From assembly GCF_003334315.1 (NCBI RefSeq), contig NZ_QOWR01000001.1: 64,000 nt of DNA; one strand, written 5' to 3'. Below, piece by piece: positions 57,001 to 60,000 of this stretch; position 1 is the first letter of the stretch, and every line of letters begins with the position of its first letter. Source of the DNA: Escherichia coli (GTDB taxonomy: Bacteria > Pseudomonadota > Gammaproteobacteria > Enterobacterales > Enterobacteriaceae). Position numbers: made by a program.

Positions 57001-60000
57001 GAGCGTCGCTTCGCCAATGATCCCGCCATCGCGGCTGCGTAATTCGCCACCGGCGAGAATAATGCGGAAATCTTCTTTTACCATCAACGTGTTAGCAACA
57101 TTGAGATTGTTGGTGACAATACGCAAATTGCTGTGATTAAGCAGCGCGTGCGCCACCGCTTCCGGCGTGGTGCCGATATCGATAAACAGTGTCGAGCCAT
57201 TGGGGATTTGCTCCGCCACTTTGCGGGCAATCCTCTCTTTTTCTTCGGTCTGGGTGGCTTTACGATCGTGCCACGGCGTGTTAACCGAACTGGAAGGCAG
57301 CGCCGCACCGCCATGGTGACGCAGGATCAGGTTTTGCTCCGCCAGCTCATTGAGGTCGCGGCGAATAGTCTGCGGGCTGACGGAGAAATGCTCTACCAGC
57401 TCTTCAGTACTGACATAACCCTGCTGTTTAACCAGTTCGATAATACCGTTGTGACGTTGTGTTTGTTTCATTTATAAATCCCTGGAATTATTTTCGTTTT
57501 CGCGCATTGAGCGAATCAACAAAAGCCATCGCTAAACCCACGGCTAACCCGGCGATGTGTGCTCCGTTCGCCATCGACATCCCAAACAAATCAAACCATC
57601 CGGCGACAATCCAGATCAGCGCAAAGATAATTAACCCACGTTGCAGGTAAATGCCACTTTGCGGATCGCGTTCGCCACGTAACCAGACGTAGCCCATCAG
57701 CGCATACACCACGCCAGAAAGCCCGCCAAACCACGGCCCGCTGAATTTTTGCTGCACATAGCCGCTTAACAGGGCGCTAATGAGAGTAATAACAATTAGC
57801 TTACCGCTACCGAGGCGTTTTTCCACCGCACCGCCGAGATACCACCACCAGAGCAGGTTAAAGAGGATATGCATCAGCGAGAAGTGCATTAACGCGTGGG
57901 TGAAGTAACGCCAGAACTCAAATTTCAGTGTTGGATCGAATGGCCAGGCCAGCCATAACATCACTTCCTGATCGCCGAGAATTTGCATGGCGATAAACAC
58001 CACCACGCAGGCGATCATCACCACCCAGGTTACCGGACCTGCGCGTTCACGCAAGGCAGCAAAGAAAGGATAACGGCGATAATGCAGACCACTGCCGGTA
58101 TGGCCCGCCTGCCAGCTGGCCGCCAGATAACGCGGATCTGCCGGGTTTTCGAGAAAACGCGCCAGCTCCGCCCGCACGCGCTCGGCCTGGGACTCATCCG
58201 CCAGCCAGACATCGCTTTGGTTATGTTGTTGAATCGTGAGGATAACACCCTGCGTCGCCATATAATCAACAAACGCCTGCGCCACGCGGGGGTTAGCAAA
58301 AGAGGTAATCATCAACATCGTTGCTGTCGCTTATTCCACACAAAAGGGGACAGTATAAAGCGTTACGCGCCGTACGCCACCTCTGCGGGAAACTGACGCT
58401 GCCAGGCTTCAAAACCGCCGTCAATGCTATAGACCACATCGTAGCCCTGTTGCAGCAGATACTGCGCCGCGCCTTTGCTGCTATTGCCGTGATAACACAT
58501 CACCATCACCGGAGTGTCAAAGTCGTTATCACGCATAAACGCGCCCAGCGTGTCGTTGGTTAAATGGAAAGCCTGCACCGCATGTCCCATTGCGAAACTC
58601 TGTGGATCGCGAATATCGACCAGCACCGCCTCTTTTTCCAGCAACTTCTGGTGCGCGTCGGCAACGTTAATACATTCGAACTGATCCATGCGTCTCTCTT
58701 TCTTTACAAACAAGTGGGCAAATTTACCGCACAGTTTACGTCGAAGCGGCAGATAAACGCCATAATGTTATACATATCACTCTAAAATGTTTTTTCAATG
58801 TTACCTAAAGCGCGATTCTTTGCTAATATGTTCGATAACGAACATTTATGAGCTTTAACGAAAGTGAATGAGGGCAGCATGGAAACCAAAGATCTGATTG
58901 TGATAGGGGGCGGCATCAATGGTGCTGGTATCGCGGCAGACGCCGCTGGACGCGGTTTATCCGTGCTGATGCTGGAGGCGCAGGATCTCGCTTGCGCGAC
59001 CTCTTCCGCCAGTTCAAAACTCATTCACGGTGGCCTGCGCTACCTTGAGCACTATGAATTCCGCCTGGTCAGCGAGGCGCTGGCTGAACGTGAAGTGCTG
59101 CTGAAAATGGCCCCGCATATCGCCTTCCCGATGCGTTTTCGCCTGCCACATCGTCCGCATCTGCGCCCGGCGTGGATGATTCGCATTGGTCTGTTTATGT
59201 ACGATCATCTGGGTAAACGCACCAGCTTGCCGGGATCAACTGGTTTGCGTTTTGGCGCAAATTCAGTGTTAAAACCGGAAATTAAGCGCGGATTCGAATA
59301 TTCTGACTGTTGGGTAGACGACGCCCGTCTGGTACTCGCCAACGCCCAGATGGTGGTGCGTAAAGGCGGCGAAGTGCTTACTCGGACTCGCGCCACCTCT
59401 GCTCGCCGCGAAAACGGCCTGTGGATTGTGGAAGCGGAAGATATCGATACCGGCAAAAAATATAGCTGGCAAGCGCGCGGCCTGGTTAACGCCACCGGCC
59501 CGTGGGTGAAACAGTTCTTCGACGACGGGATGCATCTGCCTTCGCCTTATGGCATTCGCCTGATCAAAGGCAGCCATATTGTGGTGCCGCGCGTGCATAC
59601 CCAAAAGCAGGCCTACATTCTGCAAAACGAAGATAAACGCATTGTGTTCGTGATCCCGTGGATGGACGAGTTTTCCATCATCGGCACCACCGATGTGGAA
59701 TACAAAGGTGATCCGAAAGCAGTGAAGATTGAAGAGAGTGAAATCAATTACCTGCTGAAAGTGTATAACGCGCACTTTAAAAAACAGCTTAGCCGTGACG
59801 ATATCGTCTGGACCTACTCCGGTGTGCGTCCGCTGTGTGATGATGAGTCCGACTCGCCGCAGGCTATTACCCGTGATTACACCCTTGATATCCATGATGA
59901 AAACGGCAAAGCACCGCTGCTGTCGGTATTCGGCGGTAAGCTGACCACCTACCGAAAACTGGCAGAACATGCGCTGGAAAAACTGACGCCGTATTATCAG

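Follow-up and report, generated by a model that had tools for sequence, protein, structure and literature searches.

A consensus GlpR operator overlapping the predicted glpD promoter of Escherichia coli and a candidate GlpR site at the glpG/glpR junction

We analysed a 64,000-nucleotide (nt) stretch of Escherichia coli DNA (contig NZ_QOWR01000001.1 of assembly GCF_003334315.1; the whole stretch is called the window), which carries the divergent glpEGR and glpD genes of the glycerol-3-phosphate (G3P) regulon. A reading of the sequence alone had singled out an 18-mer between glpE and glpD, ATGTTCGATAACGAACAT, as an operator for the repressor GlpR. We are highly confident that this 18-mer forms the core of the promoter-proximal glpD operator, OD1, and that it belongs to the classical GlpR operator pair that represses glpD. 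This pair is already known, and its recovery adds nothing to glp regulon biology; the flagged operator serves as a positive control, being a textbook operator recovered at its exact coordinates by sequence reading alone. The analysis also separated the GlpR sites (OD1 and OD2) from AATGTT look-alikes that belong to CRP and ArcA, and it picked out a candidate GlpR site at the end of glpG. The features of the locus are collected in Table 1.

OD1 matches the GlpR consensus and is conserved

The 18-mer lies at 58828-58845 as predicted, and the interval originally assigned to the control region (58690-58878) is exactly the glpE/glpD intergenic region. The distance to the glpD start had been put at about 35 nt; the 3′ edge of the 18-mer is 33 nt before the glpD ATG. 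It is not, however, the perfect 18-bp palindrome that had been claimed. The 7-nt arms ATGTTCG and CGAACAT pair fully, but the ATAA between them is not self-complementary (A8 and A11 mismatch), leaving 8 of 9 pairs. No 18-mer in the window has 9/9 complementary pairs, and those with at least 8/9 number seven, against 7.1 ± 2.6 in shuffled sequences. Because symmetry is at chance level, we left it out as evidence.

The sequence was instead compared with the GlpR operator consensus WATKYTCGWWWWCGARMATW (a 20-bp dyad, WATKYTCGWW-WWCGARMATW) reported from the Larson laboratory. OD1, TATGTTCGATAACGAACATT, matches this consensus with 0 mismatches, where the expectation is 0.01 sites with one mismatch or fewer per window. 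In the whole window a single site has 0 mismatches and a single site has 1; six sites have 4, and no site has 2 or 3. The half-sites ATGTTC and AACGAAC, carried by two RegulonDB GlpR sites of glpTQ, also occur in OD1 (PMC7804116 Supplementary Table 1). In the Reg-Seq supplements, neither glpD nor the operator sequence was found.

To measure conservation, we collected 80 Enterobacteriaceae glpD loci and aligned the 230 nt that precede the start codon, with 74 distinct sequences among the 75 aligned; the modal-base frequency was taken for each column and averaged over each element. The mean is 0.921 across OD1, with 12 of 20 columns invariant, and 0.51 in the glpE-proximal untranslated region. 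A relaxed core, ATGNNCGWWWWCGNNCAT, for which one mismatch was allowed, is present at the position of OD1 in 74/74 loci. Across 538 kb of orthologous sequence, the matches to this relaxed core are OD1 (74 loci), the site at the end of glpG (62 loci) and two other places. In most genera the left arm of OD1 is ATGAGCG and not ATGTTCG, so the near-palindrome is a feature of Escherichia, Salmonella and some Citrobacter.

Strain variants were also seen. In O157:H7 (Z869, L082) there is a G-to-A change in both operators, at the equivalents of 58830 and 58852 (TATATTCGAT... in OD1 and TATGAACT... in OD2), and the symmetry of the arms is broken. An apparent operator variant in S-P-C-029.01 (94% identity) was rejected, the assembly being indel-ridden and the genes frameshifted.

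A tandem operator overlaps the predicted glpD promoter

OD1 is abutted, in a 20-bp register, by OD2. The latter departs from the consensus at 5 positions, but its modal-base frequency averages 0.907, 9/20 of its columns are invariant, and its AACGAAAG does not vary anywhere in the alignment. For its name and role we assume those given by Ye and Larson in 1988 and by Yang and Larson in 1996, who reportedly described tandem 20-bp operators over the -10 element and about 30 bp past the start.

The overlap of OD1 with the promoter takes in the final three bases of the -10 hexamer as well as the inferred start of transcription. In Rouxiella-type loci, which differ in gene order (see below), a -10 element TACAAT stands directly before the operator, in the same placement. 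Together, the conserved extended -10 element and the Rouxiella-type TACAAT argue from sequence for a start at about 58837, and the glpD start of Ye and Larson is said to agree with 58836-58838. The original prediction was correct in setting an operator upstream of the glpD start codon, but it missed both the overlap with the -10 element and transcription start and the tandem OD2.

Consensus match and conservation bear out the proposal that a GlpR operator is placed to repress glpD. OD1 lies in the promoter of a G3P regulon gene and overlaps core promoter elements (given the inferred start site); it matches the consensus, has a tandem partner, is accompanied by an intact repressor gene and is conserved above background. 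The repressor gene is in the divergent operon, as had been stated: the identities of GlpR, GlpG, GlpE and GlpD come from NCBIfam equivalog models and RefSeq annotation. Within the control region, a 119-bp core (58760-58878) is 100% identical to a K-12 MG1655 record, so the K-12 literature is directly applicable. In that literature glpD is one of four known GlpR-regulated operons with 4-8 sites each (PMC7567609, citing Ye & Larson 1988 and Yang & Larson 1996), and G3P frees GlpR from its operators (PMC4117983). Protection of the K-12 operator DNA by purified GlpR, and its relief by G3P, were reportedly shown by Ye and Larson in 1988.

OD1 (58827-58846) and the abutting OD2 (58847-58866) form one 40-bp tandem operator, which begins within the extended -10 element, crosses the inferred start and reaches to about +30. 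In the mechanism that we propose, GlpR, whose gene is in the divergent glpEGR operon at a distance of 1.4 kb, would bind both operators cooperatively as a DeoR-family tetramer, and the bound repressor would either occlude RNA polymerase or block open-complex formation and promoter escape. G3P would lower the affinity of the repressor and so induce glpD. A single CRP site (58766-58781, about -63) serves both divergent promoters, and an array of direct repeats for ArcA-P (58787-58829), for anaerobic repression, covers the -35 and -10 elements. Weak operators inside glpD may strengthen repression through IHF-aided looping.

Several observations weigh against this account. The internal glpD operators presumably lie at about 570-630 bp (+568 to +628), i.e. 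at 59403-59422, but across 59403-59460 there are 7-8 mismatches to the consensus and no excess conservation, and the stretch 59403-59422 has the CGCGAAAACGG core but 8 mismatches. A generic sigma-70 scan called no promoter in the intergenic region, the hexamers having 7/12 matches. Finally, the ArcA site is given at -72/-30 in PMC3798270 Table S7, which would set the glpD start near 58859 and OD1 at about -32 to -13, a different geometry. The operators overlap the core promoter under either start numbering, and the repression logic therefore holds.

Other features were noted within glpD. The best consensus matches inside the gene are at 59283-59302 and 59616-59635, with 4 mismatches each; they do not coincide with the internal operator positions given above. 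The first of them falls in the third-strongest trough of synonymous variation in glpD (59287-59307, z = -2.5). Synonymous-site constraint is strongest at codons 2-8 (ETKDLIV; 58882-58902, z = -3.9, 73 sequences); possible causes are a protein-binding site, the structure of the mRNA or the needs of translation initiation.

Table 1. Positions of genes, operators and promoter elements in the window
Feature	Position	Strand	Remarks
OD1, GlpR operator 1, TATGTTCGATAACGAACATT	58827-58846		Consensus match and conservation; includes the 18-mer
OD2, tandem GlpR operator 2, TATGAGCTTTAACGAAAGTG	58847-58866		Abuts OD1 in a 20-bp register; within the 5′ untranslated region
Candidate GlpR operator, AATGCGCGAAAACGAAAATA on the glpG sense strand	57489-57508		Last 6 glpG codons and part of the stop codon
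Extended -10 element of the glpD promoter (inferred), TGcTAATAT	58821-58829	+	TTTGCTA invariant in the alignment
-35 hexamer, TTACCT (TTACCA in most genera)	58801-58806	+	Inferred by spacing, 17 bp from the -10 hexamer; frequency 0.977
glpD transcription start (inferred)	58836-58838	+	41-43 nt upstream of the ATG; placed by means of the -10 element
CRP site, TGTTA-tacata-TCACT	58766-58781		Centred on 58773.5, at about -62.5 or -63.5 relative to the inferred glpD start
ArcA-P binding region, three direct repeats	58787-58829	+	Overlaps the -35 and -10 elements
ArcA box, ATGTTTTTTCAATGTTAC	58787-58804	+	Sequence identical to the PMC3798270 listing
Shine-Dalgarno sequence of glpD, GAGGG	58870-58874	+	Read off the sequence; GA-GG kept in the alignment
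glpE(-)/glpD(+) divergent intergenic control region, 189 bp	58690-58878		glpE start codon is the reverse complement of 58687-58689; glpD ATG at 58879
glpD, aerobic glycerol-3-phosphate dehydrogenase, 501 amino acids; the repressed gene	58879-60384	+	NCBIfam NF008899, 836 bits; RefSeq annotation
glpE, thiosulfate sulfurtransferase; first gene of glpEGR	58363-58689	-	NCBIfam NF001195
glpG, rhomboid protease	57488-58318	-	NCBIfam NF008155
glpR, DeoR-family glp regulon repressor, intact, 252 amino acids	56713-57471	-	NCBIfam NF008154, 553 bits

The upstream look-alikes are CRP and ArcA sites

The original prediction noted additional half-site-like elements toward glpE and implied that the repressor operon is co-regulated from the control region. 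On such an explanation there would be one palindromic operator together with upstream GlpR half-sites (AATGTT at 58764, 58786 and 58796), and GlpR would coat the region and co-regulate glpEGR, including glpR itself. The AATGTT repeats do lie at roughly helical spacing, AATGTTTTTT (58786-58795) has only 2 mismatches to the 10-bp half-site, and GlpR sites elsewhere are often highly degenerate (PMC7567609). We nevertheless consider this explanation very unlikely, since the elements in question are accounted for by other regulators.

The first of them, aatgttatacatatcac (58764-58780), overlaps the shared CRP site TGTTA-N6-TCACT. The half-sites of the latter have modal-base frequencies of 1.00 and 0.98, compared with 0.69 for the 6-bp spacer, and near-invariant half-sites around a variable spacer are the signature of a CRP site. 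It agrees with TGTGA-N6-TCACA at 8/10 positions, although such matches alone are not statistically rare. The site is a dyad with conserved half-sites, a free spacer and a class I distance from the start. The glpEGR-glpD pair is among the divergent promoter pairs with a single CRP site in Shimada et al. (PMC3105977); glpD is reported as not appreciably CRP-dependent (PMC4117983).

The second, ATGTTTTTTCAATGTTAC, is a published ArcA box, identical to the PMC3798270 sequence, which lies under an ArcA chromatin immunoprecipitation sequencing (ChIP-seq) peak at glpD/glpE and scores 15.9 bits (PMC3798270 Tables S1, S3 and S4). It has 11/18 invariant columns. TGTTA-like direct repeats with 11-bp spacing are present, and ArcA binding in vivo is given in the same source, as are three direct repeats across 58787-58829. 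In contrast to OD1, none of the upstream AATGTT elements has the central CG-WWWW-CG core, and their likeness to a GlpR half-site is superficial.

The implied co-regulation of glpEGR is contradicted by work from the Larson laboratory, in which the main glpEGR promoter is not under GlpR and does not respond to it (PMC2593051). In addition, glpR has two promoters of its own within glpG (PMC5442614). From these two reports, the intergenic region is best described as a shared CRP-dependent divergent control region in which GlpR control is directed at glpD.

Binding of DnaA upstream of glpD in amino-acid starvation has also been seen by ChIP-seq (PMC12926920). The only candidate DnaA box, TTATACATA (58768-58776), has one mismatch and was rejected, as such 9-mers are about as frequent as chance predicts (97 observed, 99 expected). 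No convincing DnaA box was found in 58690-58878.

Other regulators and chance

If OD1 is an operator, it might be used mainly by another DeoR-family regulator with a TGTT-type half-site, such as DeoR, in place of GlpR. E. coli has many GlpR paralogues (AgaR, SrlR, DeoR, YgbI, YciT and others), and glp and deo operators are similar. Against this, glpD adjoins glpR, the regulon literature assigns glpD to GlpR (PMC7567609, PMC4117983), and the CG-WWWW-CG core is also present in the listed GlpR sites of glpTQ (PMC7804116). We regard use mainly by such a paralogue as highly improbable. Least credible is that the symmetric 18-mer arose by chance in an AT-rich promoter and initial transcribed region and is conserved only through its overlap with the -10 element and start: its symmetry is indeed no better than chance and its left edge overlaps the -10 hexamer, but a perfect consensus match is hardly expected in a window of this size, conservation runs 30 bp past the start and through OD2, and the motif recurs at one other conserved place, beside the repressor gene. 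The classical GlpR operator pair is thus the reading that we retain for OD1 and OD2.

A candidate GlpR site at the glpG/glpR junction

Apart from OD1, a single site in the window has 3 mismatches or fewer to the consensus. It has 1 mismatch and lies within the 3′ end of glpG, at a distance of 1338 bp from OD1 and 17 nt ahead of the glpR ATG. Its right half is identical to the right half of OD1. The end of glpG reads AATG(C/T)GCGAAAACGAACATAA, almost without variation, in 77 loci, and the relaxed core is found at this position in 62/74 loci.

As the site is within a coding sequence, its conservation has to be set against what the protein demands. Mean identity at third codon positions is 0.82 in the last 8 glpG codons compared with 0.62 nearby. 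CGA, a rare codon, encodes the two Arg residues of the site in 61/67 and 64/67 sequences, whereas it makes up 2.7% (24/894) of the Arg codons elsewhere in glpG. A window-based test of synonymous constraint at the glpG 3′ end gave z = -1.74; this is a weak test here, as the amino acid of E. coli at that place is not the modal one, and the codon-level CGA count is more informative. The site therefore combines a consensus match with conservation beyond coding need, which holds at synonymous positions in several genera of Enterobacteriaceae.

In several Citrobacter and Salmonella genomes, REP-like GC-rich palindromes (GCCGGATAAG...CATCCGGC) are present between glpG and glpR. These insertions lengthen the glpG-glpR spacer, which is 16 nt in E. 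coli (loci L005, L011, L013, L017, L019, L024, L050 and L055). Where they part the two genes, the candidate site stays joined to the glpG stop codon. Generic promoter and terminator scans near the site gave nothing useful, and our literature search found no description of its sequence.

From its sequence, GlpR binding at 57489-57508 is likely. That the site is a real, undescribed GlpR operator with a function of its own is a more tentative proposal, which we rate as possible but rather doubtful: it could mediate glpR autoregulation, by roadblock or promoter occlusion, or it could be a third loop anchor, acting with the glpD operators over 1.34 kb. Both roles are at odds with the published report that GlpR does not regulate glpEGR (PMC2593051). 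If GlpR does bind there, an element for autoregulation or for long-range looping would be added to the classical regulon. Either function would contradict the accepted constitutive expression of glpR and the placing of glpEGR outside the regulon. The dosage of GlpR would then not be constitutive, and this dosage sets the threshold for induction by glycerol and G3P and affects fosfomycin uptake via glpT.

Gene order in Rouxiella-type loci

In Rouxiella-type contigs (L083, 4250-4560; L084, 4339-4358; L085), glpG, glpR and glpD are collinear and there is no divergent glpE. The 3′ end of glpG is without the operator motif in these contigs. Upstream of glpD there are OD1/OD2-like, CRP-like and ArcA-like elements, with a further operator-like sequence, AACGCGCAATAACGAAA, about 150 bp upstream of OD1.

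The locus and its surroundings

The stretch 58300-59300 is present in 5426 of 5426 complete E. coli genomes. The control region was found in 5425-5426 of them, and about 1300 of 5425 have some difference in the 119-bp core. The MG1655 reference has a frameshifted glpR (PMC9189660); the strain of the window is not the MG1655 reference, and its glpR is intact. An Rfam scan of 55000-62000 found no RNA families, and a generic terminator scan of the intergenic region called none. On the glpE side of the CRP site there is a conserved block, AAATTTACC...CAGTTTACGTCG (58720-58743; about 0.8-0.9), which presumably is the core of the glpE promoter. Downstream, glpR is convergent with an open reading frame at 55133-56731 (+ strand, 532 amino acids), and their 3′ ends overlap by 19 bp (56713-56731). 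We take the product of this reading frame to resemble the sigma-54 activator RtcR.

Comparison with known systems

The closest comparison is with OD1 and OD2 of E. coli K-12 glpD, which are the same locus and show no difference in the core. The operators of the other glp genes, O1-O4 of glpFKX and those of glpTQ/glpACB, are bound by the same repressor, have ATGTTCG/CGAACAT-type half-sites and likewise occur as multiple operators together with CRP sites (PMC4117983, PMC7804116). Unlike other operators of the glp regulon, OD1 of glpD is the only full match to the consensus here. The glpFK promoter differs in its architecture, in that two CRP sites are interspersed among its four upstream operators, and it depends strongly on CRP, whereas glpD is barely CRP-dependent (PMC4117983).

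The deo operon offers a second comparison, as its repressor, DeoR, is of the same family as GlpR. DeoR recognises a 16-bp palindrome with TGTT-type half-sites, and three operators and looping allow repression at a distance. The spacing and central core of deo and glp operators differ, that of glp being CG-WWWW-CG, and so do the inducers, which are deoxyribose-5-phosphate for DeoR and G3P for GlpR.

The arrangement at glp is also like that at lac, where the primary operator of a tetrameric repressor covers the start and auxiliary operators lie within adjacent coding sequences. In the last codons of glpG, the candidate site would correspond to lacO3, which lies in the 3′ end of lacI, while lac O2 is inside lacZ. 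The distances are very different, however: lacO3 and O1 are 92 bp apart, compared with the 1338 bp between the candidate site and OD1, and the candidate glp site stands directly upstream of the repressor gene.

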